A stretch of 49,278 bases of DNA, counting the filler, from Jimgerdemannia flammicorona (Eukaryota): NCBI GenBank assembly GCA_003990765.1. It is 2 parts of 2 records of this genome, joined end to end, with 100 filler letters (N's around TTAATTAATTAA, not from the genome) between each part and the next. Parts side by side here need not be neighbours in the genome. Positions count along the whole stretch, not along the records: positions 24,690 to 49,278 come from RBNJ01000955.1; 1 more part is not named here. One strand, written 5' to 3'. The position numbers and the translations under genes are program-made. Shown one piece after another: positions 6,531 through 40,461 of the stretch; positions within the stretch are counted from its first letter, which is position 1; every line of letters starts with the position of its first letter. Below the pieces are notes generated by a model. The model was not told the origin of the DNA, did no database searches, and was given only the letters and a program-made list of their open reading frames with translations.

Positions 6531-6571
6531 GCCAATTCAACAATGCCAAAATTACTAAGTCACAAATTAAT

Positions 6572-8125: not shown

Positions 8126-8149
8126 ATTGAATAATATTTGATATTGGGG

Positions 8150-12274: not shown

Positions 12275-12275
12275 T

Positions 12276-12294
12276 TTGGGGGCTCAACTGGGAA
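12276..12294 (+). promoter_or_regulatory. Primer-binding site, tRNA-Pro-like
   Basis: TGGGGGCTCAACTGGGAA directly after the LTR resembles the tRNA-Pro PBS (TGGGGGCTCGTCCGGGAT in MLV) once CpG decay is allowed. Confidence 0.65.
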
Positions 12295-12307
12295 GATTCC
12301 AAAATCT

Positions 12308-15300
12308 ATGTGACTTTTCAGCTCATAAGAACCCACAGTCAAACTGGATACATTTGATACAACACCAACCTCTGCTACTACAGGAGAACCAGTTATCACT
12401 AGCATCTGGACAGGAAGAGAAGTAATCACCTCAAGACTTGCCAACTACCCAGCATCAGAAGGCTCCCAACCACAAGGCAGTACAGCCTGAAATCCCCAAC
12501 CAGATCAATCAGACAATATAGATAGCCCTGCTAGAAACTTTGAAGAACTTGCACAAGAACTAGAAGATCTTATCACACAAACCTGAGACCTTACAGCCAG
12601 ACACCCCACATCAGTCTCACCAATTTCACCAATAGAACCTTTACCACAACTTCTTGCAGAATTGGAAGTAGCTCCTACAAGAATACCTAGGCTTATTCTA
12701 CTTTGTCCAAGGTCCAGAACACTATCCTCAAGATACCCAAGCACCCTCATCTCCAGTGATAGTTCAGAAAGTGAATCAGAATCAGAATCCAAACCTGAAC
12801 CAGAATCAGAAGAAAGTGACAATGAAATGGCCACCTCATTGCCAACCTTTGCAGAATATCTGGAGGAAGACCCCAGAGAATTCCTTGATGGAATTGAAGG
12901 AATCGCAGCCTTGAGGAATCTTTCTGATGAAAGAAAAATTGCTATCTACAAGACTCAGCTCAGAGAACCAGCTAGAGGAATTTTCTACTAAATAGCAAAT
13001 AACTCAGATTCAGAACTAGCAAGACAGATTCAAGCAGTAATGTCTTTCAAGCTAGAATATGAAGCCATGGTCTACTGGCTTATTGAAAAGTATGCAGGAA
13101 ATGAAACCTGCCACAAGGCTCAAAAATCCATCATGGGGATAAAGATGAATCTTGGAGAATCACCTAGAGCCTTCTTCACAAGAATCCAGAAGAGAATGCA
13201 TACTGCTGGGTTCAATGCCATCAACTAGGACATTATAGGTCCAATGACCTTCATGAATGGAATTCCCCCAAACATTGCCCAGTATGTTCGCACTCTAGGT
13301 ATCAGAAGGTCTGAAGAGTAAGTAGATGCAGCCCAAGGATTCTTTGATGTCAGACAAGGAACTACTTGGAGTGATCATGATAAGAAAGAAGATAAAGAAG
13401 ACATCCTGGTCAAAGCCCTATAAGGACTCCTTTAAGGACAAGAAAGATCTAAAGAAAGAAGGCCAGCCAAGGAAGAAAAGAAGAACAGAAGTGAAATCCA
13501 AGACCTCAGCTCCAAGTTGGACTGATTGGTTGGACAGATTGAAAAACTCACCATACATGAAAATTGGGGCTACCAAGATAACAGAGGATACCCACCACAG
13601 AGGAGCCAAGGTTATCCACTAAGAGATAACAAGAATTATCAGCAAGAAGAAAGAAGATATCCTGTCTGAGACAGAGCCCAAGTCCAATGCTTCCACTGTG
13701 GACAATTTGGACACTATGCTACTGAATGTGATAATAAAAGAAGTAACCAAAGGGACTCAGAATCATCAAACCGAAGGAATGACACCCAGTACAAAAAGAC
13801 TGAAGCTCATCCTGTTGAAGATTTCGAGGAGGCAAGCAATAGTAAAGACTATAGTGATCTGGACTTATACCCTACCAAGGTTACCACTCAGAAAATAGTC
13901 TATCTAGTAGAGAAAAGAAAGAGACCTATAGGAAGACCATCCAGGAATATTAGCAGAAGAATCATCCAAGAGAAAGACAAAGAATATAAAGAAGAACAAG
14001 TAGAAATACCCCCCCAAACCCCCTTACCTTTTGTCAATAAGACAAATGAGTTGCCACCAGAAGATGAAGAAATGGAACAAGAAGAACGGGAACCTGTTAT
14101 CCCAAAGCCCAAGAAAAAGTACACCCCAAAGACCATGCCTAGAGACATCTACAATGAAGCCTAGCAGAAGATCCAAGAGGCCAAGATGGAAGTTCCCCTC
14201 CTGTAGTTCCTGCAACTGACACCAGCTGGAGTCCAAAACAAATTGCTGAGAACCACCAGATCTAGCACTGGCTGAGTCCCAATCCCACAGTAAGAACCAG
14301 TTTCCATCCCTGTCTAGGCAGCTGAAAGATATGTCAGCACCTACCTATATGGAGACATTGGAGGACAAAAGGTGAAGATCCTCATAGATACAGGAGCAGC
14401 TGTCTGTGTCATTGCCAAATGGTTCCTGAACACCCTCCAATGGCCCATTGATGGACCATCTAACCTCAGCATCATAGTAGTAGATAGAGCCCGAACTCAA
14501 CCCCTTAGAGAAGTATGAAATATCACTATCTCCCTTGGACACATTCAGTTCTCTATTCCCAAAGCTGTTGTCACTGAAGCTGTCACCTATGACATAATTC
14601 TTGGCACCAACTGGATGAAGCAAATGAATGCAGTTGTTGATATTGGCCAACAAGTACTCAAGTTTGACTACTGAGGCAAGAAGTATAGAGTTAAGGTGAC
14701 CAGCTATGAGCAATCGAAGAAGAAGAAGAAGGTCACTATTCAGGAAGAATATGCCAGCAGCAAGGAGTCTACTACAGAAGAGGAAGAAGAATCTGAAGAC
14801 AGAAATGATCCCAGACTCAATCCCCAAATTAATCTGGTAGATAACAGACTGGAAGATAATGTGTGGGCTAAGAACACCATCCCTATTACAATTGGAGCTA
14901 TTGTAGGAGAAGCCAAAGGATGCCCTACCTGCCTCAAGAGACACAAGTGTCCCAAGCATTCCTTCAAGACCATGGGAACAAGGAAATCACCTGGCACAGC
15001 CTGCCCAGAATGCAGAAAGAAGAAGAAGAAATACAGACATGTTCCAGAAACACCTGCAACTAAAGCTGCAGAAGTACAAGCAATTTGGGGTCAAGAATTA
15101 TCTGTAGAAGAAGAAACTTCTGATCAAGAAGTCCCTAAACAAGAAGCACCTGAAGAAGAAGAGGTCCCTGAACTCATTCCCTGGGATGATTCTCACTGGA
15201 CACCACCTGAAGGCAATGACCCTTGAAATACAGAAGAAGGACCCAGTACAATCACCATTATCCCCAAGAAAGAAACTTACCAAGAAAAGGCTTTCCAGCT

Positions 15301-18300
15301 AGGAAGATGTCCACATCAAATGGTCTTCCACTCTCCTTAAGACTACTGCTACCAGTGCCATTTACTAGACCAATAGGAAAGATAGAGATCCCAGAGACCA
15401 GAACCCCCGAACATACTTGCACAGTCAACTACTTTCCAAGAAATTACCACCAAGATGCAAAGCCAATTCAGGGGACAAGGCTTCTTCATCCAGATAGAAA
15501 TATATCTCTTGTCTACTCTTCCACCCACCTATGACCAAGATGGGTACCAATTTCCAAGACAACAAGAGATCAATAGTTGGGAACATCATTTCCAAGCAAT
15601 GAGATACTGCAACCATAGAAGACACCCAGACTGTCAGTACTGCAGGCATCAGAAGATCCATCTCAGTCATGATGTTGTAGTTCACACCTTGAAGAGAGGA
15701 GATAACTGAAGCCAGATCTGAAAAAGCCAGACCAAAAAGCCAGAAAGAAAGACCCTCAAGATCTATGATTTAGGAGAAGACATCCTAGCTCTCATCAGAC
15801 ATACAACCTGTCAAGGATGGGCAGAAGATACCACCAACTTCATGGAAGCCCTTGACCCTACAGGAAGAAGGGGAATCAACTATCTCCGAGACCCCTCTAC
15901 TGAAGCCAGATGGCCACACCTCAACCTTAGAGCTTGGAGGCTCTCCACTAGTGGAGCTTCAGCCTTAGGAAAGCCCAAACTCAGTAAGGATATCACTCAG
16001 TATGCCTTGCTGCACCCCAAGGCTAAACCCCCGACCAAAACCCACCCAGAGAATGTAGGATATGATCTTCACAGCCTGGAGGATGAATCTATCAAACCTG
16101 GAAAAACCTTCATGATCAGAACCAGATTAGCCATACAGCCACCCCAAGGAGCTTATATCTAACTGACCTTAAGGTCCTGACTTGCCAGACAAGGAATAAC
16201 TGTAGAAGGAGGAACCATTGACCCAGGATATACAGGCAAAATCAAGGTTATCTTACACAACAGCAGTACAGAATGGCACCAAATCATTAGAGGACAGAAG
16301 ATTGCTCAAGCAGTCTTCATGAAAATCAAGACTCCACAGTTACAAGAAGTCTCTGAACTAACTGAAGGAACAAGACAAGCTAAGGGATTTGGAAGTTCAG
16401 ATAGGAAGGAAGTACACCTCCTTCAAGTCAACTACCTCAAGAGGAATATTCCCCAGCAAGTGTATCAGCAACCAGTCAGACTGTACAAGATCTTATCTTG
16501 GAGTCTGGAGAACAAACTACCTTCGAAATCTTTGCACCACCTGACCCCAGAAACCTTTTCTTCAAACCCAAGGAAGATATTCCCCACCTAGACATAGAGG
16601 GACACATATTCTCTGACAAGATGAAACCAGTACACTTCTGAGCAACCAACCAAAGCTGGGAAACCATCATTTTGCCAAAAGAAACCATCATTGGACACCT
16701 GGTACCCTTTCTTAACTGAACTTATAGGGAAGTTTATGAACTAAACCTATTGGGAAATGGCAAAAGGTCCCAGAAGAAAGGAAAGGCCCCTCTGTGACCC
16801 AGGAAACAGCGAAGCCTTCCACCAACATTGGAGAAGAATTGACACCTCGACAACAGCAACAACTAGTAGAACTTCTCAACAAATATCAAGATATCTTCAC
16901 CACTGATTATGGCAACCTACCATACAATCCATCATACCACCACAGCATAAAAACAGGAAATGCAACACCCATCCAACAGAAACCCTATAGAATACCCCAT
17001 CACTTAAAAACATTCAAAAAGGAGCACATTCAAGAACTCTTAAACAATGGAGTCATCTGACCCTCTACTAGCCTCTGGGCCAGCCCTATACTTATTGTAC
17101 CAAAGAAAGGAGGATGGAGACTCTGTGTAGATTATAGGAATCTCAATTCAGTCACTGAAAAGGATACCTATCCTTTGCTCAGAATCAATGACCTTTTGGA
17201 TCAGTTATAAGATACCAGATACTTCAGCAATATGGACCTCTTCACAGGATTCCATAAGATCCCCATGGACCCCAAGAACATTCAGAAGACATTCAGAAGA
17301 CAGCCTTTCTTGCTTTAGGAAAACTGTTTGAGTACCTCTGAATGCCCTTTGGACTTTGCAATACACCTCTCACCTTTCAGAGGATGATGAATTTAGTCTA
17401 TACTCCCTTGATCCACCACTGCCTGATTGTATATATGGATGATTCCAACATCTATTCAGCAAATTTTGAAGAACACCTGTACTACCTAGAGGAATTCTTC
17501 AAGCTCACCCATAAGAACCACTTAAGATTGAATGCAAAGAAATGCTACTTTGGGAAACAGAAACTTGAATTCCTTGGATTTATAGTTTTGAAAGAAGGAA
17601 CACATACAGACCCAAAGAAACCTGAGAAGATCAGCAATTGGCCAATATCCAAGACTCCAAAGGAAACACTACCATTTCTGATGCTAGTATCCTACTACAG
17701 AAGGTTTATCAAGGACTTTGCCCAAATCGCTGCCCCAATCCAGATCCTTCTCAAGAAAGGAGTGCCATTCAAATGGACAGAATCACAAGAAAAAGCCTTT
17801 GAAGAACTCAAGAACCACATGACTACAGCACCAATCCTTGTGTATCCCAATCTACAGAAGCCATTCATCTTATATACAGATGCTTCTAAAGATGGCCTCA
17901 GAGCAGTCCTAGCCCAAGAAGGACCCGATCAACAACACCATGTGATAGCTTATGCAAGCAGAGCTACCAATCAGCAGCAGATAAACTATGGTAGCACCAA
18001 ACTGGAATGCCTTACAGTCTATGGGCAGTCACCCTGTTCAAACATTATCTTATTGGAAAAAGGTTCACTCTGATCACAGACCATGCAACTCTCAAATGAC
18101 TATTCAACCACAAGGAATCCACTGGAATCCTAGCCTGCTGGATCCTTATTCTTCAGAATTACAAAATCACCATCATTTACAAAACAGGAAAAGTCCACAA
18201 CAATGTTGATGTACTTTCCCACCAACCCCAATGAACCAGAACCCTGAGGAACTACACCCTAAAGGAAGTCCCTGTGACTATTAAGGAACAAGAAGATCTC

Positions 18301-19286
18301 ATCCAACAAGAACACCAGAAAGCCCACCAAGGACAGATAAGTACAGAAGACAAGATTTGAAAACAATATTAACATTGGCCCCATCTCAGAACACAAGTCT
18401 GAGACATCATTCAGAAATATGACACCTGCCAGAAGTATCAAGGAAAGAAGAACTATCAAGCCCCTCTGCAACCAATTCCCCCACCTACTCACATCTTTCA
18501 AAGATGGAGAATAGATGTAATTGGACCTCTACCAGTTACACTAAGAAGAACCAAATATATTCTTGTACTTGTGGAACATCTGACCAAGTGGCCTGAGGCT
18601 TTTCCAATAGAAATCACAGATGCCTTAACCATTGTAGGCCTTCTCCATGGACTTACACTCAGATATGGATCACTAGAAGAACTCATCTCTGACTGAGGCA
18701 TGGAATTCATCAACACCATAATCACAAATTATGCTCGAATTCACAAGATCCACCTCAAATGGACCACATCATATCACCCTCAGACCAATGGCATGACAGA
18801 AAGAATGAACCAGACCATTAAGAAAGGACTTGCTCAAGTCAATCCTACCAATTGGGACCTCTGCTTACCTGAGATCCTATGGGAAATTCGAAATACCCCT
18901 GCTGCATCAACCAAACAAAAGCCCTTCGAAATGATGTTTGCCAAGAAAACTAGAACTGCTGACCATGAGAACCTCGGAAAGCTTCTTGAAAAGAGAGATC
19001 AGCTACAAAATGAAGCCCGAATTCAGATTATCAAGGCCCAGGAAAAACAAAAGAAGTGTTATAACCAGAAACAGAAGGATCAGAAGATCAAGATTAGCAA
19101 TCAATCCTAGTTTGGAGAAGTATGATAGAAACAAACTTTGCTGCTAAACTGGAACCAAAATGGAAAGGACTATACCTTGTATACAATATCAGAGGAACCA
19201 GTATCTATATAAGAAGTATGGATGGATGTGTCTTGAGAACTCCAGTCCACATCAATTGCCTCAAAATATACCTGCACAAATCATGA
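12308..19286 (+). pseudogene. Gag-Pol of element 1 (apparently one ancestral frame, now with many stops and a few frameshifts)
   Basis: CCHC knuckle QCFHCGQFGHYATEC (about 13685), protease ILIDTGAAV (about 14378), [12 protein letters not shown] and YMDD, RNase H LYTDASKDG, integrase EHQKAH...CQK and HPQTNGMTER. Confidence 0.9.
16005..16402 (+). pseudogene. dUTPase domain between protease and RT (element 1)
   Basis: VGYDLHS, LRS*LA, GGTIDPGYTGKIKVIL, IAQAVF, RQAKGFGSS match the five dUTPase motifs. Confidence 0.9.
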
Positions 19287-19789
19287 CTCAGAGGATAGAT
19301 CAATGCCTCCAGACCCTCATCCTCAGCTCTCTCCAAGCTCTGCCAATTCCCCTGCCCCAGTTCTGCCAACTTGAAGGAACCCCCATATAATTGATCCAGA
19401 AGCATCAAGAGAATCTTACCATTGCCCAGAGGTTGCTTCAGATCTACCATCTACAAGCCTTCTACAACATTGGACAGCTATTGACAGAACAACCTTACAT
19501 AAGGAGCCCAGCCAGAATTACTCTCAGAGAAGCAAGAACTGCTAAATGAATCTACACCCTGTACAATTGAAATTTTGGAGCCCTGGTGCAGTCTCACTTC
19601 CACCTCAATAATATTCATCAGATGAATGAGACCACCTTTCAGAGTATTCTTCAACAAGTGGACATTCTGTTTCCTGAAGAACAAGAGGAAGATTCAGAGC
19701 TAGAATAGAGTGACCCAGATATAGGCAATGAAGATGATGGAACAGGCATAGATGCAGAAGCAGCTTATGCTTATTGGGATGATGACTGA
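19283..19789 (+). pseudogene. Extra ORF (168 codons) between integrase and PPT, function unknown
   Basis: ATG overlaps the pol stop (TCATGA). One frame, MTQRIDQCLQ...YWDDD*, with only transition-type internal stops and an acidic tail. Confidence 0.7.
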
Positions 19790-19828
19790 AGAACAGTCTG
19801 AGATAGACTATTCTTCAGTGGGGGCTGA

Positions 19829-20919
19829 TGTGACAAATCACAAAATGTAGCAATCTTGAAATCCAACCAGGTGACATGAATATTAGTATAGCACAGTAAC
19901 CAGCAACCATTGCTGCAGAAATGTATAAATAACCCAGATAGCAGGAAAAACCCTAACAGTAGCTATCATCCTGACAGCGAATGTCACCCTATAAATAGTA
20001 TTCTATAGTTAACCAGATAGTGACCAAGATAGCAACCACAATGTATAAAATACCCCAGAGATAAGAGTGAATAAACCTCAGTCCAAAAGTTGAATACAAA
20101 CTAAAGCAAAATTCAATTGTCTGGTACACTTAGGAGAAATGCCTGCCAAAAGCCACTTGATTCAGAAAGGATTGCAACACTTAGAAGATATGCCTGCCAA
20201 TGAGCCACTACTAAGAAGTTGTGAGCTTGGTTCTCTTCTCTTCCACTCTGGTCCACTTTCCAATATAAAGAACAAGTCCGTTTTTGGTTTGCTTGCCAGA
20301 TAAGCCTGAAGATTTGCTGCCCAAGTTCAAGAAAGAACTTCACCACTATTTTCAAGAAGTCCGCCAATTCAGGAAGAATCCATACCATCATATTCTCAGT
20401 TGAAGCCACTACTTTTGAGTTATCCGCATTCCTAGAGAATCTGCAACACCTGAGTTATTATTCCCAGAAGAGTCCAATTCAGAAGAACCCATATCATCCC
20501 CTCTTCCCAGTAAGCTAAATCGAGTTATCTACCAGAAATCACATACTTTTGGAAATTGTCATGCTATATAACAATCATCATGCAGAGATTACTGCCACCT
20601 AAGAAGGAAATTGCTAAATCACCAGATTGTCACACAGAGATCATTGCACTATACACGAGATTCTACCAATTCCCAGATTGATCCAAGAAGGAAACCCATT
20701 CATACAAATTGCTGCTATACCCAGAGAACCATCCCAATTAGGAAATCGATATACAGATCACTCGAAGATATCCAGCTTTGACTACTATACCACTAAACAC
20801 CAAGGACCTCAGAAATTGTAGAACATTTTGTTGCTTTTGACAAAGTAACTGGGGGCTCAAGCCAAACTATATTGACCCACAACCTTGTAATTTGCCTCCA
20901 TTGAGCCAGGCACATTACA
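19829..20919 (+). repeat. 3' LTR of element 1 (1091 bp), preceded by PPT-like AGTGGGGG
   Basis: TGTGACAAATCAC...GGCACATTACA, followed by TSD ATAC. Confidence 0.95.
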
Positions 20920-24689: not shown

Positions 24690-24871
24690 AAATGTATAAA
24701 TACCCCCCAGTTTCCATCTGAAATAAAGCAATTTTAGTTCAGTCCTTGATATAAGAATCAAGTTTCCCCCCCCCTCACACACACATATTCCCCTGAGTCT
24801 TAGTAATGATATCTAAGTGACTTTAGTATTTCTGACTAAACTCCAGAAGCCTAGCTAACTTCTGTCAGAAC

Positions 24872-25295
24872 TAGTGCTCCCAAACAAGTCAAATCAATTC
24901 AAATTGAATCAAATTGAGGGTTAAATGAGTTGAATCGAATTGGGGATTTTTCAATTTGAATCAATTTGAATCAAATCAAAAGTCGAATCAAATTAAGGGT
25001 CTGATTTAAACCCTAATTTTCAAAATGCAATAACTCAGTGTAAACTCATCCAAATCTAACATACCTTAGCTTGTTAGAATCACATTAATATGGTGAATCT
25101 AACAAGCTAAAATACATTAAATTTAGATAAGTTTTCATCGAGTTATTACATTTTGAAAATTAAGGTTCAAATCAAACTTCAAATCAAATTAGACCTTTGA
25201 TTTGATTCAAATCGAATCGAATTGGACCCTTGATTCGATCAAATCAAATTGAGTTTGGGCCAAATTCGATTCAATTTGATTCATCGGGAGCACTA
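24872..25295. mobile_element. hAT-type MITE inserted in the 5' LTR of element 2
   Basis: Perfect TIR TAGTGCTCCC / GGGAGCACTA and 8-bp TSD GTCAGAAC. The 3' LTR shows the empty site (GCCAGAACTGAGACT). Confidence 0.92.
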
Positions 25296-25318
25296 GTCAG
25301 AACTGAGACTAGTATATA

Positions 25319-26509
25319 TTGGCTCCTTTCTCTGCTATCTTACTGGTCACAAGGTTTGGTAGGTAATCTTCCGAGTCCCCTTTCCTCTATTATTACCCCC
25401 TCTACCTTGGGTTGGTTTGCTGTGCTTGCATGAGCATGGTGAGAGGAGGGCAATGATGATGAGTTGCCCCTTTATCGATGTCGGATTGGTGTCTTCTCTA
25501 CTTTTTCGTGGTTTCTAGTGCCTTCGGCTGTGTCTGGAGTACATCCATTTTGGTGCAGCACCTTCTTCCTTTTGCCATCACCAACAAGGTGCTGTCTCAG
25601 TGTGTCTTGGGCTACATAGGGAGTTGGCTGACCTTGGGTGTCAAGTACTCAGTATAGATTACCTGCAGGTCTTCGGTGCTTGTGGTGGGGCCCTCTGGCT
25701 TTGGCAAGCTTCCTGGTGAGCATGGTTCTGGCATAGGTGACTGCTTTTTGGGTGTTGTCAGGATGGGAGGAGAGATGGCCATCACAGATAAGAGGAAGGG
25801 CAATAATGGTGAACCAGTAGAGTGCTAGACTGGGGGCAGTTATTGGGGCTGGGGCAGGTGCTGTTTCAGTGGGGCCCTTTGATTGGTGTGGCACAGTTAG
25901 GTGGTAGGTGTCACTTTTGGCTTCTTTTGGCAATCAGCAGGGTTGGGCCCCAGTTGTCAGGGGGGGTCAGGAGGCCCAAGGCTACTCATTTCAGGCATCT
26001 TGGCTACACTCAACTGGAACTGAGAGCTGATACAGCAATATGATCAAGGCCTGCAGACTTGAGTAGTGGGGTATTGGGGGTTTTCTCCTGCCTCACATAT
26101 AAGTTCTTTACTTACCTTGACTGAGAGAACCAGGCCCTACCCACTGTGTTGTACTTTGATGAGAGTTTTTCTTTGCCTGTCATTCTCTTTGGAGTGACGG
26201 GGGCTATTCTATTCAGCTTGGGCATAGCCTTGTACATATGTTGGGTTCTCAGGTATGCGCTTTCAGTCATTAGTATATGGTTGGGTTTCCCCTGATAGTA
26301 GGGAGAGTATGGTATGCAGAATGAGGTGTGGGCCAACTAGGTTTTGCTATGCCTAGCATGGTTGAGCTGCTGGACAATAGCTAGTCTAGATTAATGGGGG
26401 GACAGTGCTTGGTGGGTAGTGGGGGAGGGTTTTGGCCTATATAGTCTAGGTTCTCTTCTAATAAAATTCTGCGGAATATGAGTCCATTAAAAAAAAAAAA
26501 AAAAAAAAA
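25319..26509 (+). mobile_element. 1.19-kb non-coding poly(A) retroposon (SINE-like), copy 1
   Basis: AATAAA at 26460, A21 tail and a TSD of about 14 bp (GAGACTAGTATATA / GAGACTGATATATA). Absent from the sister LTR. Confidence 0.88.
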
Positions 26510-26959
26510 GAGACTGATATATAAATTCCCAAAGACTTAAGTAAACCCATTGAACCTGAATTCCAAAGCAAATTCAGTCTGTACATAGCAAAGAACAAGA
26601 CTCTTGAAAGATAGGGTAAATCAGAAAGACTTTTGAAAGATAAGACACTACCACTACAATCATTTTTAAGTAAGTATTTCCTCAAACTGAAGGCTTCTTG
26701 ATATACATTGTGTACTAAGTCTCTAAGTAATATCTTATTTTCCTAAGTATCCAAAGGATCAGAGAGGGGTAGAAGTAAGAGTTATTATAACTTAGTAGTA
26801 GTGAATTACTAAGCTAAGAAGATATCAAGAACATACTGCTGAAGTTGGAACAAGATCAACCTTAGACAGAAGTAACCCCCAGAACCAACTGTGGATTCTC
26901 TAGGATCAAACCCCCAAACCAGAGCCAGAGAAGCCCTTGCCATTAGAACCAAGTGATAC

Positions 26960-29900
26960 TAGGAAACCACAGACTCAAGGACCCACCAGCTTATTATTGA
27001 TCAGGCTTATAAGGATCTAAACTAGGTCTTTAGGACTTACCACCCAGGACTTAAGAATATAGTCAGCTACTATAGATTCTACAAACTTCTCTGTGGACAT
27101 ATTGGAACCACCAGGACTCCAGAATCTACTGCTGTAGCCACTCAGGATTTTCTAGATTATATCTCACCCTCTGCTGCAAAAAAAACAGCTGCTGAGTAGA
27201 TTATCTCTGACAGATATCATCATACTCCCATTAAGATCTCACTCTAATATAGGCTAGTTGTATACTACACCTCTACTATAACTAGGTATGAGAACAAGCA
27301 AGCAGGTCACCCATCTCCTACTGCTGAATAAGAAGTAGGTTCATCTATCTAGCCAGAACCTAATATCTTCTTTGAAGGACCTAGTCAGTATGAGGATGCA
27401 CTATCTCATCAGAGAAGAGAGTCAGACCAAGACTCTATAGGATACCAGTCTGATAATAGCCAACAAGAAATAGCAGGCCTAGGAATTTACCAATTATAGG
27501 TCAAGAAGATAGAACCCCAGAACTAATCCAGCCACCTATATAGAGGTTTGGTTTACCCTCTCTCACAGGACTCTTTGATCTGATATCTAGAAATCAAGTA
27601 ACCCCAAGTTATACAGCACTATAACCTCATTAGGCAGAACAATCCTCAGAAGAATCTACCTTCTTAGGACCACTACCAATAGTCAATACAATGGTAGATA
27701 TTAATATTGCAATACTGACTACCCAGCTAGCTATACTAGCAGAGATAGTAGGACAAATTTCTGAATAGAACAAGTCAATCAAGACCTTGCGAATCTCTAT
27801 ATTCAGTGGAAAAAACAGTAACATTGAAAACTTCATCATTATAGTTGATACAAGTTATCAAGCAAACTAATGAAATGACAACTAAGTGCCTACAGGAATG
27901 CTCACCAATAACCAGAACAATACTCTTTAATAATTGTTTGCCACATCAGCAGCACAAGTAGAAACAGTAGCCATATTCTTTACTAGAACAACAGTCAAAT
28001 TTTGGTATATCTTAGAACAGCACTCAGTAACTTGGAAGAACTGCCCTCAAGTTGCAGGCCAAGCACAAACCCATAACAGACCAGGTTAGGATGACTATGA
28101 AGCAAGCCCAGGACTCAAGGCTCTACTACTGACTAAATTTCGAAATACAGTATATATATAAGAAACTTAGAACAAACTGACCCAGATGAAGTTCCACAAA
28201 AATAGCAAGGAGGATCTAGAGACCTTTACTACCAGGATGGATGCCTATCTCAAAACTGTAGGACTTACCTACTAGGAAAGCAATTTGGCCATCAATAGTA
28301 CCAGAGCCAACCATCTCTTTGCAGTTCTATCAGACTAGCTCACTCAGAAGATTAAGAAATAAGGCCTTCCTCAAGGATGTCTCCACTACTCATAGTACTT
28401 TGCCTAAGTACAAAGAAGAGCCTGTAAAATCCTTACTATACAGGTCCTATGAAATCCAGAACATAAGAAGAATAACCAAGATAGGAGGAATCCTACCAGG
28501 AGAAATGACCAAAGATATAATCAAAGGAATGATCAAAGGAACCAGCAAAACCCCAGAGGACCCAGACCTCCCACCAAGGATAAAAAAAAGCAGCTCTGCA
28601 AAAAGGAATTGTGCTTCATCTATAAGAAGGCAAGACATATCTCATTCAAATATCCTGAGAAAAGAAACAGATTAGGTAAACCCAGTAATCAAAACATTAC
28701 TGTTATTGAAGAAGATCTAGAAAAGAAGAACTCTGAGAATGTTTTCAAAGTGCAGAAGATATGGTATAAGGCTATCATCCCCACTAAGGCCTACCCTACT
28801 GATGCTGGATATGATCTCTATAGTAGCTAAGACCTCACTATTTCACCAAGTACCAATGCTATAGTATAAATAGAGATTATAATGCAAGCTCTCAAAGGTA
28901 TATACATCTGTCTTACTAAGCAAAGTAGCCTAGCCAAAGAATTCAATATTGGTCTAGAAGGAGGAGTAGTTGACCAAGGATTTACTGGTAAAATTCATAT
29001 TATCTTGCAAAATTTTGGAGATACATCATTTGAAGTCAAAGTAGGCCAAAGAATTGCTCAAGTAAATATTGAAGAAATCCATTAAGATCTTACTATTGAA
29101 GAAGTTCCTGAGCTCTCCCAGACAGACTGTAACAAGAAAGAGTTTGGATCAACCAATAAATCTCTTAGTTAAAAGGTCACCACTATGAAGGAAGATGATG
29201 AAAACTAATACAAGAGAATTGAGATAGTTATGCACCATATAGATGATGCCCTCATTCTATTCAAATGTACTATATAGAACATATTAGTGAATGCCATGTA
29301 TGCCTCTTCAAGGTTTTCAAAATCAATTCTGAAAGAAACTAAGCCCAGCAGGCTGAGGAGTCCAAACAAGACAACCCTCCTTGTGAAGGATGGAGAGAAA
29401 CTGACTTCAAGGAGACTGATAGCAATTGAGACAATAATGAAGATAAAGAGCTCAATATAATCAAGAAGGAGGATAGTTACATCAAGTTTACAGACCAAGT
29501 TCACAGATAAAAGATCAATATCTTGCTTGATAGTAGTGCTACTGAAAACTATATTAGCATCAAAACTGCCAAGAGGGTTGGAGCCTGAAGCAGACCAGCT
29601 ACCAAGAAAAGGAGTGTTATCTTTAGTGATAGTAAGACTACACCACTGACCAAGATCTGTAAAGATCTCTTGCTCATGATTGGTAAATATTAAGAGAAGT
29701 TGGACTTCAGTATTATAGACCTCTCAAGATAAGATATTATCCTAGGAAAAGTCTGATTGACTCAACTCAACCCAGACATCAACTGGAGGACCAATAAGAT
29801 TAATCTGACTTATGAAGGCAGAAAGATCACCCTGATACCCCAGGAAGATACCAATCATCAAGGAATCGAAATCATCTCTGCCATCTAAATGAAGAGACTC

Positions 29901-32693
29901 TTTTGAAAGAAAGGAAACACCTACTTCATCTGTACTATATAAGAAGTCACTGAAGTTCCAAATAGCCCAATCTCATCAGAAGCTCAAGAACTATTTGAGG
30001 AATTCCAAGATATATTCTAGGACCCTCAAGAACTTCCACCTAAGTGCCAAATTCAATATGGAATTGACCTCATTCCAGGATCTGAACCTCTATATAAGAG
30101 TATTTATCAATTGACCCAATTCGAACTCAAGATCCTTAAGGATGAGTTGACCAAACTATTGGTCCAGAGATATATTGAACCTAGCCACTCTCTATTTGGA
30201 GCCCCCATTCTATTTGTCAAGAAGAAGAATGGCTCTCTGTAAATGTGTATTGACTACAGAGCTCTCAACAAGATCACTATCAAGAACTGGTATATCTTGT
30301 CTAGGATTGATGAATTGTTGTACCAAATCTTCAAGGCCAAGACCTTTTCCCTACTGGACTTATAAAATGGCTACCATTAGATTCTCATTAATGAGAAGAA
30401 CATTGAAAAGACAGCTTTTCAAACACAGTTTAGATACTACCAGTTCTAAGTTATATCTTTCAGTTTAACCAATACATCAGCAACATTCCAGTATCTGATG
30501 AATGACATCTTTGGACCACTCCTCAACATCTGTATTCTTGTATATATTGACAATATACTAATTTACAGCAAAACAGTAGTTACACTACATCTACCTCAGA
30601 CAGGTACTGACTCTTCTACAAGAATACCAGCTCTATGCCAAGATGAGCAAGTGCAAGTTCTACTAAGACCAGATTGAGTACCTAGGATATAACATCTCTG
30701 CTGAAAGTATCAATATGGACTCTCAAAAAGTATCAGCTCTTAAGGATATTCCTATCCCTACTACCCTCAAGCTACTCCAGTGCTTTCTGAGTATTACTAG
30801 TTACTACTGAAGGTTTATTCAAGGATACTCTACTATTATAGCCCCACTGACCAATCTAGCTTGCAAAGGAGTAAACATCAAAACTAAATATATCCCCAAA
30901 TATACTCAGACTATGGACCATCTCAAGAGACTTCTTACTAAGGCTCCAGTGCTAATTATATCTAACTCTACTAGACCATTCACTCTGACTACAGATGCCT
31001 CTGACATTGCTATTAGAGCAGTACTCAGCCAAGAAGATCACCCAGTGGCCTACCTTTCCCAAAAGCTCAAGCCAGCTGAGATCTGGTATACTATCCATGA
31101 GAAGGAACTCCTGGCCATTGTCACTGCACTCTAGGAATGGTGTTATTTCCTCCTAGGACAACTATTTGTAGCCTACACTAATTACTATGCTCTACAATAC
31201 ATTCACACACAGCCTATACTGACTTACAGACAAGCCTGCTGGATGGAAATCATTGCTAAATTTGATATGGAAATCAAGTATATCTCAGGCAAAACCAACT
31301 GTGTGGCTGATGGTTTCTCTAGATATATGGAAGATGAACTTGTTTTTATAATTGAGATAATTGGAGACCTCTCTCAAATGATCAAGGATGGCTACTAGTA
31401 AGATAGCTCTCTGGTGAATTTCCTTCAATTCTGCCAAGACCTAGAGGCTGAACTCCCAGAACCCATGAGACAAATGTCCAAGAGATTCACTTACTATGAT
31501 GGACTAATCTATAGAGACCATTATAGAGTAGTTATACCCAACAATGATACTCTGTGACTCAAGATCATACAATCTCTGCCTATTCTGAGTCACAACTAGG
31601 ATCAGATTACAATAGACTTTATTGTTCAGCTCCCTAAGACCAAGGCAGGATGAGATGTCATTGTGGTATTCATGGACTGCCTAAGTAAACAAGCCCATTT
31701 TGCACCCATCAAGACCACCACTATAGTATCAGAGATTGCTAAGATTTTCCTCAACTAAGTATTTAGACTATATGACATGCTTAGCACTATTATATCTGAC
31801 CAAGATGCTAAGTTTACAAGCAACTTCTAGAAGGCATTCTTCTCTCTCTATAGAACCAAGCTGAAGTTCTCTACTATCTACTACTCCCAGACTAACAGTT
31901 AAACTGAGTGAACCAATAGGACCCTCAAATAAATGCTTAGCATTTTCTGCTATTACAAGCAGAATGATTGGGACAAGTATCTTGCCCATACTGAGTTTGC
32001 CTACAATAATAGCTAGTAAACCTCTACAAAGAAGACTCCATTCTTCTTGAACTATGGTCAACACCCAAGGACCCCAAGCACTATTGTGAAATCAGTAGTC
32101 CCACTGGCCCAAGATCTGGTTGAGACTATTTCTGATCTTACCTGAATGACAAGAGATGCTCTCATAGAAGCATAGGACTACTAGACCAAGTATGCAAACT
32201 TGAAGTAAAGAGAAGTCTCCTACAATATTGGTGACATGGTCATGCTTAGAACAGACTACCTCCACCCAGACATCCTGATATAACAACCAGCCAAGAAACT
32301 CTGTGCCAGAAGAATTGGACTATATAAGATTGTGGAAAAAGTCAGCAAAGTTAACTACAAGTTATAACTTCTCCACAATATTCAAGTACACCCAGTATTC
32401 CATATCAGTCAATTGGTGGACTACCATGAGAACTCATTTTCTAAGCATATAGTTCCACCACCACTCCCAATTAGGATCAATAATTATGAAAAGTTCAAAA
32501 TTGAGAAAGTACTTGACCACAAGGTCTGCAAATATCCCAAAACAGTTAAGCTATTTTTTCTCATTAAGTGGAAGAGTTACCCCATCCATGATGCTATCTA
32601 GAAAAAGAAAAAAGCTCTGGAGAATACATATAAAGCCCTTCAGGACTATATGGAAACACTAACCCCCCAGCAGAGGAAGGAACTGCAGCTTTA
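26960..32693 (+). pseudogene. Gag-Pol of element 2, decayed
   Basis: Degenerate knuckle LCFIYKKARHISFKYP (about 28608), protease ILLDSSATENYI (about 29520), [11 protein letters not shown] and [19 protein letters not shown], integrase core and chromodomain FKIEKVLDHK...FLIKWKSYP (about 32490-32600). Start is approximate. Confidence 0.85.
28744..29160 (+). pseudogene. dUTPase domain between the Gag zinc knuckle and protease (element 2)
   Basis: DAGYDLYS, QSSLA, GGVVDQGFTGKIHIIL, GQRIAQV, KEFGST. Confidence 0.9.
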
Positions 32694-33335
32694 AAAATTA
32701 GAGCATATAGTAAATAAGGAGGATACTACATATTTTATCTGAAACATATAATATTGAATATTGCAGAAAAAGGAATACTATAATTAATTAATAAGAAGAT
32801 ATGTAGGTGAAGAATAATCTAGTATAGTGTAGCAAAATATATTTGAATAACTCCATTTCATGCTATCTATGTCATCTCTGCTAGATGATAACAGATGCTT
32901 CATATGGAACTTAAGAAAGTTATAATGTTGAAACTAATCTAAGTCCATCTGTATGACAGATATTATTACTAAAAATTGTCTCAGATTATAAGAAATACTA
33001 TTTCTGAGAAATTCGAACCCCCAGCCATAATAATAAGAGCCCTCACCCTAGACAAGAATGGCCAGTCCTTGCAAATGTACCAACTAGACAAAAAAAAAGA
33101 GGACCAAGATCTGTCAACTCTATGTAACCATCACTGCAAGTAGTAATATCTTTGAAATCTAGATTTTCTCATATGACCAGCACATGCTCCACTTATAGCA
33201 ACAGGTCATATATTCTGCTGGAAAGTATGACCAAAAGAAAGTCATACTAGATAGGTAAATAAATATAAATACCCAAGGCAAGAATATCCTGCAACTCTTA
33301 TCTCCCTCTCCTCACAAAGAAAAGACAAAACAAGA

Positions 33336-34167
33336 ATGCCTGCTACTCACCACCAAACTGCCTGCTGTAGCCAGGCCCCTCCCAAGCCAGGTTGACTGTC
33401 TCTTTGAACATATCTAGGTTGCTATCCAGGGAAGGAACCACTGCTCTGAGGCCCTTAACCTCTCTAGCCTGGACCTAGAACAGTATGTCCTTGACTACTA
33501 TGAACTCATCAAAAGGGTCTACCTTGCTGCCAGCTGCCTAGAGATCTGGCATGAATACAAAATTAGTTATCAACTCCTCCAACATACAAAGGACCTACTT
33601 ACTGATCAGATCTCAGACTGGACTTACCTAGATAGGCATGAGCAAAGACTTACTAAGAAGGTCTATCAAATTATATGCCATGCACTCTTTGCAATCTCAA
33701 CTTCAACTATGTCTAACTGAAGGATTTCCGTAATCTCTTCTTTCTTGAGATTGATAAGCTAGAGATCAAGGTAGCCCAAGAAGCCAATGTCTGGATTACT
33801 TTCAAGTCCACTGACTGTGAACCCTACTAGAGCTCTCTCCTGAATGACAACCTAGATCAATGGCTCCAAGGCCTCTCTGACCTCTTTAAAGGACCACTCA
33901 TTCGAATAGATATGTATTCTCAGACATGAGGATCAAGAACTCTACTTGGATAGTCTCAACTGCATCAGATGGAGAACTCCTACACCAATATCCATACTAA
34001 TATAAGAATCATTTGCAGACCTCATTGACTTCTCTATTCTAGATAGTGAGTTACCAGTAACTACCCCTCCTGCTACTGAAGAAGAGGGCAACAATACCAA
34101 GGAAGATTCTCCATCTTTCTCTCCCCTGGTTCTCAATTTTCAAATCAATAAGAACATTGATTTCTAA
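33336..34167 (+). pseudogene. Extra ORF upstream of the PPT in element 2, function unknown
   Basis: ATG at 33336; long frame SQVDCLFEHI...HEQRLTKKVYQI with frameshifts; final stop runs into the PPT. Confidence 0.6.
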
Positions 34168-34178
34168 GGGGGGAAAGA

Positions 34179-34941
34179 TGTAATAGAATGAGATGTGATG
34201 AGTGATCACATGACCCAGCAAGTGATGACATCATATGATCAAGTGTGATATATAAATGATAGATGAATAATATGAAAAACAAGGCAAAAAATAATATTCA
34301 ATTTATCTCTAACAATCAATACTACAGTAACTATTGCCACAGTAGCTGATTATTGTCTAGTAATTGAGGTCCTAATAATAAAGTTGTTTTTGCCACAAAC
34401 TACCTGACAAAGGTTGTGATTATAAACCTCATTATAGTTATCAAATTAGTCACTCATACTTAGTCAGAAATTGCAGACCAACTTATATAAATACCCCTCA
34501 GTTTCCATTCAAAATAAAGTAGTTTTAGTTTAGTTCTTGATACAAGAATCAAGTTCCCCTCCCCATATACACACACATTCTCCTGAGTCTTAGTAATGAT
34601 ATCTAAGTGACTTAGTATTTCTAACTAAACTCCAGAAGTCTAGCTAACTTCTGCCAGAACTGAGACTAGTATATAAATCTCCAAAGACTTAAGTAAATCC
34701 ATTGAACCTGAATTCCAAGGCAAATTCAGTCTGTGTACAGCAAAGAACAAGACCCTTAAAAGATAGAGCAAACCAGAAAAACCTTTGAAAGATAAGGTAC
34801 TGTCACTACAACTACTTTTAAGTGAGCACTTCCTCAAACTGAAGACTTTTTGATATATATTATATACTAAGTCTCTAAGTAATATCTTATTTACCTAAGT
34901 ATCCAAAGGATTAGAGAGGGGTAGAAGTAAGAGTTATTATA
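34179..34941 (+). repeat. 3' LTR of element 2 (about 763 bp)
   Basis: TGTAATAGAATG...GAGTTATTATA, matching the 5' LTR fragments. Confidence 0.9.
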
Positions 34942-37414
34942 ATCTATATCAATCAGTTCTTCTTCTTGATTGGAAATGAAATCATAAAGTTATAATTCCT
35001 TACAATGAGTAGTATTTCTCCAATATAGTCTGAATCAATGATTTCTCCTTTAATAGTAATCTCATTCTTGGCTAAGCTACTTCTTGCCTTGAGAATCCCA
35101 ATATGGTCTTTTGGAATTATCATTTCCAACTCAGTTATAAGCAGGGTAGTTGTCTGGGGCTCTAGTACAGTTTCCTCCATTGGGGTGATATCTATTCCAG
35201 CTATATTCTCTAACTTATATTCTGATAGAACTATATTAGAGTGGATTTTCTGAATCTTGACCTTGATTTCTTCTTCATTATCACTGTTCTCTAGAAGGAC
35301 TAGTGGTTTGTCATTCTTTTTCTTTTTCTTTTCTTATCTTACTTATTTCTTAAAGGCCTTCTGTCTTCTTTTATAGTAGATTTTCTTGATTCCACTAATG
35401 TACTGGTAGCAGTCATTAATATATTTCATATAGTATATCTTTATTCTATGAGGGCAGACTCTCTGTGATATATATTCTTCAATGATCTTTTTGTATCATT
35501 CTTCTTTACTGATCTATTTAACTTTCTTCTTCTTTTTCTGAGTAGTTATTATGTAGACTTCTTCTTGCTTACTTTTTTTTTCCTCTATCTCAGGTAGTAC
35601 TTCTTTGTTGATATTAATGAGAATTCACATCTTCTGGGCATTGAGGTCAATTATTGCTCTGACTTTATAAAGCTACTGGTTGCTAATAAGGAAGTTATAG
35701 TTGGTAGTATTAGTTATAATCATATTTACTAAAATAGTTACTCCTCCAAACTTGATGGAAATATCTCAGATTATTTTTAGAGATGTAGCTCTTATACTAT
35801 CTGCTATAACAAACACTAGTTTGGTTGCTTTTTCAACCTCCCAGCCTAGATGGTCTACTGCTTTCTTACTGAGGAGGCATCCTCTTACTCTAATGTCAAT
35901 GATGACCTCAAAGATTTTATCTTTGATTTGACAGACTACATAGGCAGAGGTTTTGTGATTGTCTTCACTCTCTTCTCCAGAGTCTTCTTGAACATTATTG
36001 GCCTCAGTTATCTTCCATTCTTGCTTCTTAGTTAACTTAGTAAGTCCATATCTCATTTGCTGTCTAAATATAGGTAATTCAGCCAGCTGGCCAAAGATTG
36101 TATTAACCTTTTGTTGACTGAGATCCTTGAAGATATCATATTTGAAAGTCTTGATCTTACAAAGCTTCTTCTTCTTTTCTCCTTTACTGGCTATGATAGT
36201 TCTTCAGATGATATCTTGGATAACCTATTTCAATTTCATATCTTGATCTATTTCTTTAGCTTGGCTTTCTATAGTACTTTCTATCTATTTCTCTACAGAG
36301 TTCTTCTTAGATCTCTCTGATAGTCTTTTGTAGAGATATTTGTAGACATTCTTCTTGATAGTCTCAGCAGAATAGATATTTCATTCTTCTTCATCTAATT
36401 CTCCAATCTCTTTGAAAATAATAGTATTGGCTTGCTTCTTGTTTCAAATAGCATTGCTTGGCTGGGCCTTATGCTTGGTTTCACTCATATATTTATATAA
36501 GTAGTGGCCTTCTTCTCTACAAGTATAGCAGATACCTCTCTTCTTGTCTGAGGTAGTAGCAAACTTCTGAACTGGGCAGTAGTCTCTTTCTCTAATTTTC
36601 TTTACTATATCTCTAAGATGGATAGTTATTTCAGTAAACTTAGCAAGTTTCTCTATTGAGTTATAGTTTCTCTACTGCTCAATAGCTCTTGGCTGAGGTG
36701 TGTTTTAATTAATTACTATGATAGAGATCACACTAGTTGTCTTAGGTACTTTGATTCTGACTCTAGTGACTTTTTTCATTATATAGTCTTATGGATGACT
36801 GGCTATCTAGTATCACTGAGCATAGGTAATCTTTTGTGATAAATCCAGGACTACTGGTGATGAGCAGATAGCTATAGCTATCTCTGAATAAACTCCTTTC
36901 ATAAAGGTTGCTTTGGCTACTTGGTCTTGGATAGTATCAGTATAATCTGCAAGAATTATTTGATATTGAATTCTGGTGTAGAATGTATTTGGATCCTCAC
37001 TCATTCCTTGACATATTATGTTGAGCTAATCCTTCAGAGCTTGCTTAATCTCATCTATATACATAGTAGATAGCTTGGAGCCAGACCTTCTGTACTATCA
37101 GTATAGCATTAGTATTATTTTCTGCATGGGTTGTAGCTGTGAATGCTACTCTTACAGGACCTTGTAGGCTAAAGAGCATGAGGGCTACTTGCTATACTAC
37201 TGTCAGAGTCCTTACAGGAACATACTACTTAAAATCATTAATAAAGATGATGATTGATTTATCTGAGGTATATCTGTAGAATACTGATGATCTTGTATCC
37301 ATCTTATCTTGATATTTTGATTCAATTTGTATAGTTGTTCAGATGATAGTAGTTGTTCATTGTTTAGCTTAAAAGTGAGGAATTTATCTTAAATTACTAG
37401 CTAATAGATACCAA
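34942..37414 (-). mobile_element. Ty3/Gypsy element 3, copy A (PBS, gag, PR, partial dUTPase), cut by element 2
   Basis: PBS-like TGGTATC (about 37407-37413), knuckle ICYTCREEGHYLYKY, protease VIIDIRVRGCLL (decayed DTGAGG), dUTPase AGIDIT/ARSSLA/IIDSDYIGEI ending at the LTR edge. Confidence 0.85.
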
Positions 37415-40410
37415 GTCATAATATAGCAGACATATAACTAGATAAATACATCAGATTTCTGTATCTTGAAAACTTAATCTTCTTTGACTCTGCAGAGTCC
37501 TCAGAATATAGGAGTGGGTGAGTTTGAAGTATATTCTAATTTCATTGATCTTATTTCTGTTTCTGATATTTGTTACAAGTTATGACAAATTATCTGATAT
37601 CTTTCTCTATTCCTGGCCACCACATTGTTCTTCTTGCTTTATTGTATATATTTGTTTCTTTTAAATGGCCAAGTTCATATATATACTGATTTTATTGCTT
37701 ACTCCTTCTTGTGTTCAGATATAACTAGTAGCTTTCCTTTCTTTAGTATTTCTCTATCAGTCTTAAATTATTTCTATATTTTATTAATAATCATTTATGT
37801 CTATTCTTCTAAATATTGAGACATCTTTTACTATCTCAGGTAAGTGATAATTCTGTAGTAGAGTTCCTTATTTATAGTTGATTTTCTGACTGAGAGTTCT
37901 TCAGAATGTCCATGAGAGGGTATCTATATTAGTATTAGTTCTTCCAGAGCAGTGCACAATAGTTACATTATAAGCTTACAACTTTATAATCCATCTAGCA
38001 TAGATTCCTTTGGGTTGTCCAGTAGTTAGTAGTTAGGTGAGAGCTGAGTGGTTCATCTGAATAATAAAGTGTCTCTCTGCAAAATAGTAATAGAACTTCT
38101 CTATGGCCCAGATAACTGCAAGATATTCTAACTTGTAGAATTCATACTCTTTTTCAGCTCTCTGAGTTCCTTAGTTTAGATATGTGATAACATACTCTAC
38201 TTTGTCTTTCTTTTAAGCCAGAACTGCTCTTAGTCCTTGTGTACTTACATCTGTCTACAGGATGAATTCTTAAGTTCAATTGGGTCTTCTGAGGATGGAT
38301 GCTTGGGTCAGCCTGATCTTGAGTTTATCAAATGCTTTTTGTTGCCTATCAGTCTATTGAAACTTGAAATCCTACTTATTGACTTTATAGATTGGGCCTG
38401 CAATATTAGAGAATCCTCTGATAAATCTGTAGTAGTATGAGATGAGTTTCATAAAGGCTTGGGCTATAGTGACAGTAGTGGATCTTGGGTATACTACTAC
38501 TATTTGAATCTTGAGTGGGTCTGTGTATATTCTATCTCAGTTAATGATGTGACTAAGATAAGAGATCTTAATTTCTGTAAACTTATACTTCTTGGGCTTA
38601 TATATAGGCCATACTCTCTTAGCTTTTCCATCATCTACTGGATATACTGTAGATATTCTTTAACTATTTTACTATAGATAATAATATTATCCACATAAAC
38701 TATTATCCATCTTCTTATATTATAGTAGAAGATTTTATTCATAATTTGCTAAAAGCTTACTAGTATATTGTATATTCCAAATAGTATTTGCAGATAGACA
38801 TAGATTTTGTCTGGAGTGATGAAGGCTGATTTTTCACTTATTGCTTTAGAGACCAATCTGATAAAATTCTGAGTATAAATCCAAGGTACTATAATACTGT
38901 ACTTTATCTTTCAGAGTTATAAGGATATTACTAATGAGGGGCAGTGGTGGAAAATCCTTCTTTGTAGCCAAGTTGAGCTTCCTGTAATCAGTACAGAGTT
39001 TTGGGGTAAATTTTCCTGATTTATTTCCTTTTTTCAGGATCAATATAACTGATGAAGCCTAAGGACTGCTGGCTTCTTTAATGATACTAGCTTCTTCCAT
39101 CTGCTTGATTTCTTTTCTAAGCTATTTATGATAGACTGGCAGAATTGATCTTGCTTTTTAGTAGATTGTTTTGATATCTCTCATATCTATATTATGATAG
39201 TAATATAGAGTCTTTCTCTTGATATCCTTGAAGTTTGTGGCTAGAACATCCTTAAATTCATAGAGTATCTTCTTGAGTTTCTTCTTGAATGGGAATTTAT
39301 TTCTAATGATATAGCTGTACTTATTTGTAATTTCCTTCTTCTTGTGGTCCAATTTAGTAATCTTGGTACTAATGAATACTCCTCTTCCAGTAGATCCAAA
39401 TTCTTTTCTTTCTCTTTCTAGTTTCTCCAACTTCTTGACTTCTATAAAGAACTAGGAAGATTAACATTTGTACCAGTTAGTCTTTCTTCTTAATTGGAAT
39501 TAAAATTATAGAATTGTAGTTTCTAATAATAAGTAGTATTTCTCCAATATAGTCTAAATTGATGACTCCTCCTTTAATAGTAATCTCACTATTAGCTAGA
39601 CTGCTTCTTGTTTTGAGGATCCCAATATAGTCCTTTGGAATAGTCATTTTCAGATCAGTTGTAAGTAGGGTGGTTGTCTGGGGCTCTAGTATAGTTTTCT
39701 CTACTGTGGTAATATCTATTTCAGCTATATTCTCTGACTTATATTCTGGTAGAACTACATCAGAGTGAATTTTCTAAATCTTAACCTTGATTTCTTCTTC
39801 ATCATTGCTGTTCACTAGGAGGACTAGTGGTTTATCATTCTCTTTTTCCTTCTTTTCTTATCTTGTCTATTTCTCAAGGACCTTCTGTCTTCTTTCATAG
39901 TAGATTTTCTTAATTCCACTGATATACTGATAGCAATCATCAATATGTTTCATATAGTACATCTTGATTCCATGAGGGCAGAATCCTTGTAGTACATATT
40001 CTATAATAATTCTTTTGCACTATTCTTCTTCTTCTTTTTCTGAATAGTCACCATATAGGCTTCTTCTTGTTCACTTTTTTCTTCCTCTATTTTAGGCAGC
40101 AATATTGATAGGAATTCATATCTTCTGACCTCAGTAGATGATCTGTATCTTCTGAACATTAAGGTCAATTATTGCTCTGATTTTATGAAGCCACTGATTG
40201 CTGATGAGAATATCATAGTTAATAGCATTAGTTATGATCACATCTACTAGGATAGTTACTCCTCCAAATTGATGAAAACATCTTAAATCTTTTTTAGAGA
40301 TATAACTCTTATACTATCTGCTGTGATGAATATCAATTTAGTTGCTTCTTCAATCTCCTAACCTAGATAGTCTGCTACTTTCTTACTGAGGAGATATCCT
40401 CCTGCTTCAG

Positions 40411-40461
<51 letters not shown>

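Follow-up and report, generated by a model that had tools for sequence, protein, structure and literature searches.

A retroposon of about 1.17 kb from Jimgerdemannia flammicorona (GenBank assembly GCA_003990765.1) has neither a protein-coding frame nor a tRNA-derived head, and the question it raises is where the common start of its copies comes from. Two copies lie in the window, the 49,278-nucleotide stretch of DNA that was analysed as a whole, and copies number in the thousands genome-wide. A start borrowed from a LINE of the same genome would explain, with no need of a tRNA head or ribozyme, why most of these copies are full-length.

Two copies in the window

Copy 1 of the element occupies positions 25322-26509 on the plus strand and copy 2 positions 43018-40417 on the minus strand, the two being 78-82% identical over two BLASTN pieces. 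A previous reading of this DNA, made without database searches (hereafter the sequence-only reading), had described two diverged copies with a common 5' position, AATAAA plus poly(A) ends and target site duplications (TSDs) of 14-17 bp. This description holds: both copies begin at GCTCCTTTCTC, both carry the terminal signals, and the TSD is 14 bp for copy 1 and 17 bp for copy 2. The element is also GC-richer than its surroundings, as had been claimed, with 49% GC versus 33% and 39% in the flanks.

The left TSD of copy 1 (25305-25318, plus strand, as are all parts of this copy) recurs as the right TSD at 26510-26523 and also at 34662-34675, in a paralogous repeat that shows the site unoccupied. 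It is followed by three extra non-consensus nucleotides at the 5' junction (25319-25321) and by a LINE-derived 5' hallmark of about 40 nt, running from a pyrimidine box to CACAA (25322-25363), that is a putative internal RNA polymerase II (Pol II) promoter. Behind this head lie a constant body common to lineages A, B and C (25364-25886, consensus nt ~45-568, ends approximate), which is A-poor with weak 3-periodicity; a swappable middle (25887-26366, ends approximate) that is replaced in lineage B; and a constant tail (26367-26488) made up of a G-rich tract, AATAAA at 26460-26465 and a short terminal hairpin with a variable loop of 4-5 nt. A poly(A) tail of 21 A's (26489-26509) completes the copy, which differs from the family consensus by 139 C>T or G>A changes and 11 others.

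Copy 2 (40417-43018, minus strand) is older, with 946 positions identical to consensus A, 205 C>T/G>A differences and 17 others; its 5' TSD lies at 43024-43040 (minus strand) and the partner at 40401-40417. It is longer than copy 1 only because a separate 1.35-kb retroposon that contains a variable-number tandem repeat (VNTR) and ends in poly(A) is nested inside it at 41356-42707 (minus strand), between 15-bp TSDs at 41341-41355 and 42708-42722. This nested unit lies outside the family; it is 5'-truncated and consists mostly of a 9-bp VNTR.

Other mobile sequences surround the two copies. A palindromic MITE with short terminal inverted repeats and an 8-bp TSD, presumably a hAT-like trait, lies at 24872-25295, 9 bp upstream of the TSD of copy 1, and MITE-like ends also adjoin truncated element copies at two other loci (L161 and L168). 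Two units resembling LTR retrotransposons, each with dUTPase/RT-like frames and long direct repeats, occupy 11104-20910 and 24695-34942, and copy 1 is located in a long direct repeat of one of them.

A large family with a common start

A search of the element's own genome returned 6,242 candidates, of which 40 were scored. Searched with exact 20-mers, the genome has 2,682 matches to the 3' end of the element, 1,310 to its middle and 1,183 to its 5' end, and none to the reversed control words. Correcting for decay gives ~3,600 copies from the 3' word, kept by 17 of 23 copies, and ~4,600 from the 5' word, kept by 17 of 66. The family is put at roughly 3,500-4,500 copies and, as a rough estimate, about 2% of the assembly.

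The distribution of 5' ends was followed in a 3'-anchored sample of 90 of the 100 matches listed, all on the first, longest contigs (ten listed matches were skipped, five of them at contig ends). Among these matches, 66 of the 86 informative copies reach the common 5' start, four of the 90 stop at a contig end, and 20 miss the start, at least two of these being interrupted or diverged full-length copies. The sequence-only reading was therefore right to see a defined unit rather than a randomly 5'-truncated LINE.

TSDs could be resolved in 47 of 110 sequences, many others stopping at contig breaks. They measure 14-17 bp in 36 of the 47; a T directly precedes the TSD in 25, and an A is its first base in 34, a count confounded with the poly(A) tail. 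The distance from the TSD to the CTTTCTCC box ranges from 0 to 25 nt, and the commonest start is CAGCTC before CTTTCTCC, exactly these six nucleotides directly following the TSD in 13 of the 47 resolved copies. An extra G at the 5' junction, a sign of a cap, was not found in the resolved copies.

The family falls into three lineages. Lineages A and C are collinear; lineage B agrees with them over nt 1-568 and over the ~120 nt at the 3' end, but its middle is different and contains a duplicated 70-nt motif. Family-wide, 30% of CpG sites show C>T and 42% show G>A, versus about 5% change at non-CpG C and G and at most 1% for all other changes. A metagenome scan with the head pattern gave no matches, and a sequencing-run search, its query spanning flank and about 700 nt from the 5' end of the element, listed no RNA run with a match. 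One run of uncertain kind, searched as contigs, covers 28 of 30 query bins, mostly at less than 95% likeness, and has no bearing on expression; it also contains the element head joined to other sequence.

A head shared with the LINE of the same genome

Where the sequence-only reading saw no LINE homology it was mistaken, because the first ~40 nt of the element match the extreme 5' end of the genome's L1-group LINE. A decayed copy of this LINE superfamily lies in the window at 7150-10160 (minus strand), its 5' end near 10150 carrying the element's head motif, and a decayed L1-group LINE with ORF1 and an endonuclease/reverse transcriptase ORF2 at 43590-49278 (plus strand) probably represents the type of the autonomous partner. 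LINE 5' ends met by chance in flanking sequence resembled the element start and were the source of a LINE head pattern, which has 1,469 matches in the genome; all 30 sampled matches run on into LINE 5' sequence. Fifteen longer LINE regions, two of which align only in part, describe a ~5.8-kb element with several lineages 68-93% identical.

The LINE encodes the Pfam domains RVT_1 and Exo_endo_phos, its best PDB match is human L1 ORF2p (E 5e-25, with R2 at 6e-7), and a search with its proteins returned four distant EN+RT(+zf-RVT) proteins that leave L1 and Tx1 unseparated. Its 599-aa ORF1 frame (L237:3761-5557, minus strand) has no Pfam match at E 0.01, and two LINE copies with both ends visible have TSDs of ~14-15 bp. 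Within the genome, PF14529 has no matches, and PF00078 has 150 reverse transcriptase matches, none of the 30 taken as loci matching the element.

In Smith-Waterman comparisons with both LINE strands, the element's first 45 nt align best at LINE position 10-11 in all 15 LINE copies, with 31 identities in 41 columns for the best pair. Aligned with the first 60 nt of the LINE, none of 2,000 dinucleotide shuffles of the head attains the mean score; element windows outside the head score at most 16 versus 29 for the head. When position is ignored and the whole of one LINE is searched in both orientations, 6 of 300 shuffled heads equal the score of the real head. BLASTN of the element against the 15 LINE copies left the short head match unreported, and the case for homology is built on the match being terminal in both element and LINE. 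The likeness was first noticed by eye, and a pattern covering part of the motif served to gather many of the LINE heads; among 49 LINE-type 5' ends, a large share of them pattern-selected, the head is better kept than any other part. It is kept across the LINE lineages, while the remaining 5' UTR varies. Variants of the LINE lineages break, rather than compensate, possible pairs in the head, and because the sequence itself is kept, this behaviour better fits a DNA motif than an RNA fold. In the older lineage C the head is more LINE-like through a one-base insertion, found in 9 of the 10 copies that could be read there (18 examined) and in none of 67 such copies from other lineages (90 examined).

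The head also starts a VNTR retroposon in locus L109, where at 3800-3960 a VNTR similar to that of the retroposon nested in copy 2 stands directly behind the LINE head, and it starts a LINE-like element in locus L313 (21/26 identical ungapped) that has no BLASTN match to the main LINEs. In the latter locus (G000:C514:6000-9300, minus strand) a 222-codon ORF start of distant LINE-like character lies behind the head, and the sequence after it is possibly the beginning of 18S rDNA. A pattern for the element head with another continuation gave five matches, all of them element copies. It is conceivable, if still a tentative idea, that the head is a Pr77-like hallmark of this organism's L1-group elements, a portable core promoter that may also act as a 5'-end-processing RNA of an undescribed kind, and that it has been grafted repeatedly onto unrelated passengers (the element, the VNTR family and distant LINE lineages), founding several ORF-less families.

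Transcription and mobilization

The reported absence of a tRNA head and of A and B boxes was confirmed: ARAGORN at a relaxed threshold found no tRNA in either of two consensuses, and the only B-box-like match lies at nt 724, outside the head. The element contains eight internal runs of at least four T's, which together with the lack of A and B boxes in the head argue against transcription by Pol III. Rfam yielded no match in the element and so no sign of homology between its head and a small RNA gene.

The family has spread by retroposition with L1-type hallmarks; its copies have a LINE-homologous head and a fixed start, which a minority have lost through 5' truncation. Mobilization by L1/Tx1 machinery, as the sequence-only reading proposed, is supported for the L1 group by the poly(A), the 14-17-bp TSDs and the L1-like partner LINE. 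The element is likely an ORF-less, Pol II-type non-autonomous passenger of L1-group LINEs, headed by their putative promoter motif. Under this model, the ~40-nt head would be the LINE's internal Pol II core promoter, from which full-length copies would be transcribed from their first bases, and AATAAA would lead to a polyadenylated RNA. LINE ORF2p would take this RNA in trans by its poly(A), in the relaxed manner of L1, and insert it by target-primed reverse transcription. The body would be passenger sequence, its middles exchanged between lineages, and inserted copies would decay by methylation-type C>T/G>A mutation. Internal Pol II core promoters are familiar from Drosophila LINEs, and the 40-nt motif would be a compact candidate core promoter present at thousands of places. 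In the accessible parts of the published accounts, Pr77 of L1Tc and NARTc is described as a DPE-containing Pol II promoter of internal position (PMC4748587), and mammalian L1 as recognizing poly(A) without tail homology (PMC3747384).

Body and tail

Because the head is LINE-derived, the body and tail might be LINE-derived as well, in which case the element would be bipartite, derived by deletion or left as a relic from a LINE lineage that is older or lies outside the sample. The layout of the tail is parallel in element and LINE (G-rich tract, AATAAA, small hairpin, poly(A)), and nt 45-660 show a weak 3-periodicity, with p = 0.009 in one of five windows versus 2e-12 for a LINE ORF1 control, both of which are in keeping with such an origin. 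At the level of sequence, however, the tails of the element and the sampled LINE lineages are no more similar than shuffles (546 of 1,000 and 70 of 200 score as high), and comparison of the body with 15 LINE copies gives a best BLASTN E of 0.025 and TBLASTX matches to low-complexity sequence only. A LINE ending in the element's tail was seen at none of the 90 3'-anchored loci, among the matches listed, and in none of 29 sister LINEs. An origin of the whole element from a LINE is thus unlikely, and the sampled lineages contained no LINE with a matching tail or body that would identify the mobilizing lineage. With one start in 66 of 86 informative copies and no LINE carrying the tail at 90 loci, again among the matches listed, the picture is the opposite of the staggered 5' ends within a LINE 3' UTR that the sequence-only reading had named as evidence against its view.

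One locus (L160) had been taken as a LINE sharing the element's last 195 nt, and was rejected: it is a LINE inserted in an old copy, between duplicated sites, and that tail occurs in none of the 29 sister LINEs. The LINE in question (L282/L160, G000:C175) is without its last ~240 nt and poly(A), and entered the old element copy with a 16-bp duplication, possibly through internal priming.

Within the middle of the element, a motif of ~70 nt (approximately 26003-26075) comprising a GCAA-capped hairpin and a B-box-like word is kept in lineages A, B and C; in lineage B it is kept and duplicated despite replacement of the surrounding sequence. Its position and spacing, and ARAGORN, rule it out as a tRNA relic.

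RNA structure

The sequence-only reading pictured a long structured RNA with many hairpins, possibly with a 5' ribozyme or derived from a cellular non-coding RNA, and these suggestions found no support. Rfam gave no match in the element on the window and nothing relevant on 14 loci (one match at E 2.3), which, with the absence of a tRNA match, also speaks against derivation from a cellular non-coding RNA. When windows of consensuses A and B were tested on either strand, none of the 108 tests reached z <= -2, the lowest being -1.6, and the many hairpins are not confirmed as an excess over chance. G>A decay has helped to make the stems AAGGTT/AACCTT and GTCATTC/GAGTGAC perfect, the family consensus having G at those positions; because copies decay by C>T/G>A change, hairpins read from single copies are partly artefacts. 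The second helix of the proposed 5' pseudoknot is broken by the one-nucleotide insertion in 9 of 10 readable lineage-C copies, and the pseudoknot competes with a simple nested hairpin of -14.4 kcal/mol, in a folding model that cannot score pseudoknots. Its third loop measures 2 nt against a stem of 5 bp; a 2-nt third loop is short for such a stem.

Covariation was sought in 108 copies. Non-decay compensatory cells number zero in 20 named pairs and one in 194 MFE pairs. Double decays are in raw excess in the named stems (6 of 1,000), but copy age explains this (113 of 2,000 with age strata, 353 of 2,000 without lineage C), and it was rejected as covariation. The sequence-only reading had held that a lack of covariation would count against a structured RNA, and none was found, in a comparison whose power is limited by the closeness of the lineages and by decay of the copies after insertion.

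These results also bear on an alternative role for the shared head, namely that it is an RNA element, a self-cleaving ribozyme or pseudoknot, that defines, once read-through transcription has occurred, where both LINE and passenger start, in the manner of L1TcRz. The precedent is the trypanosomatid head that, in the accessible part of the report, serves as both promoter and HDV-like ribozyme (PMC3383444), and the fixed start in most copies, the -14.4 kcal/mol hairpin and the raw double-decay excess can all be read in its favour. The uniform 5' junction expected of an HDV-like ribozyme is nevertheless not seen, the junctions being ragged and only 13 of 47 resolved copies having the exact commonest start after the TSD. 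Rfam has no match, and a home-made scan, run without a positive control, found no HDV-like, hammerhead-core or twister-core motif in three consensuses and four LINE heads. The head folds with a z-score of only -1.0, its pairings differ between LINE lineages, the double-decay excess vanishes once age is controlled, and compensatory changes are absent from the named pairs, so that a ribozyme or pseudoknot head is quite improbable.

Coding potential

The element is non-coding, as had been stated: every frame of three consensuses contains at least seven stops, and the longest open stretch is 166 aa. No Pfam family was found on three antisense peptides, in agreement with the remark that no protein is recognizable. 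It is very improbable that the element is or was an antisense protein gene (HAL1/ROPIP-like), or a host-transcript retrocopy fused to a LINE head, because the antisense frame, for all its stop-free stretches of 110 and 58 aa, the weak periodicity and the precedent of the peptide encoded by Eg-R1 (10.1101/242271, as far as the accessible text goes), is interrupted by two stops in the consensus, has no synonymous excess (9 versus 8.2 expected) and no Pfam match. With phmmer, 1.84 billion proteins gave three matches: a repeat protein that is unrelated, and two short proteins that look as if genes had been called on related copies. The only nominal synonymous excess is in plus frame 1 (P 0.012, one of 24 tests), which contains 11 stops. 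It is conceivable that the body descends from coding sequence that has since decayed, to which the weak periodicity might point.

Relation to known retroposons

The comparisons that follow are drawn from the accessible parts of the cited accounts. The closest parallel to an ORF-less passenger headed by a putative LINE promoter is provided by the trypanosomatids, whose NARTc/L1Tc, RIME/ingi and SIDER elements include ORF-less poly(A) retroposons with TSDs (PMC2323293; PMC4748587), and where, as here, a short 5' hallmark is common to LINEs and otherwise unrelated elements (PMC2323293). Their hallmark is 77-79 nt long (79-bp signature, Pr77) versus ~40 nt here (PMC2323293; PMC4748587); their partner belongs to the ingi clade and not to the L1 group; their head reportedly also acts as a ribozyme, whereas none is supported for the element; and RIME and NARTc are deletion derivatives, whereas the element's body and tail are not detectably LINE-derived.

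Sadhu of Arabidopsis is likewise a ~1-kb non-coding poly(A) element with a T/AA-type nick, TSDs (7-18 bp), a fixed start followed by a pyrimidine patch and no tRNA or 5S head, and it is thought to be LINE-mobilized from an internal promoter. Its 5' motif CAATCGTTSC is absent from the element, however, it has ~20 full-length copies (PMC2848041) versus thousands, and the element's head can be traced to the LINE. Eg-R1/Egh24 of Blumeria, compared by description only, is also fungal, with more than 3,000 copies, no 5' A/B boxes, internal T runs, AATAAA and Pol II-type character, and related non-LTR elements are most alike in the first 100 bp. It differs in being ~670 bp long, in genomic copies without poly(A) and in encoding ROPIP1 (10.1101/242271), whereas genomic copies of the element end in long poly(A) tails and no ORF is supported in it. 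The bipartite non-autonomous LINEs of the RTE, Ingi, Vingi and R2 groups are ORF-less, keep the LINE 5' end and are probably transcribed by Pol II, but their 3' part is LINE-derived, which the element's is not among the sampled lineages; supplements aside, the source reports such derivatives for these four groups only and none for the L1 clade (PMC5786205).

The element shares a poly(A) tail and TSDs with Pol III SINEs and, with bipartite LINE derivatives, a 5' end taken from the partner LINE (about 40 nt only) and the absence of an encoded protein. It lacks defining features of Pol III SINEs, of Sadhu and of strict bipartite LINE derivatives. On the best reading of these analogies, it would work like NARTc/SIDER and resemble Sadhu and Eg-R1, while belonging to none of them. 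A literature search, with Repbase and most subscription journals outside its coverage, returned no description of the family. What is unusual is an L1-group head on an ORF-less family, which would extend the shared 5' hallmark system of trypanosomatids to L1-group elements; in other respects the family is a set of decayed repeats whose general kind is known, with no new functional RNA.

Other features of the window

Two further features lie in the first part of the window. Positions 2972-6543 hold a complex array of ~240-bp units in both orientations with many hairpins, in which Rfam gave sub-threshold miRNA-family matches only. At 870-2075 (plus strand) lies a 401-aa frame with an acidic N-terminus and no Pfam match at the cut-off, the C-terminal part of which is presumably transposase-like.
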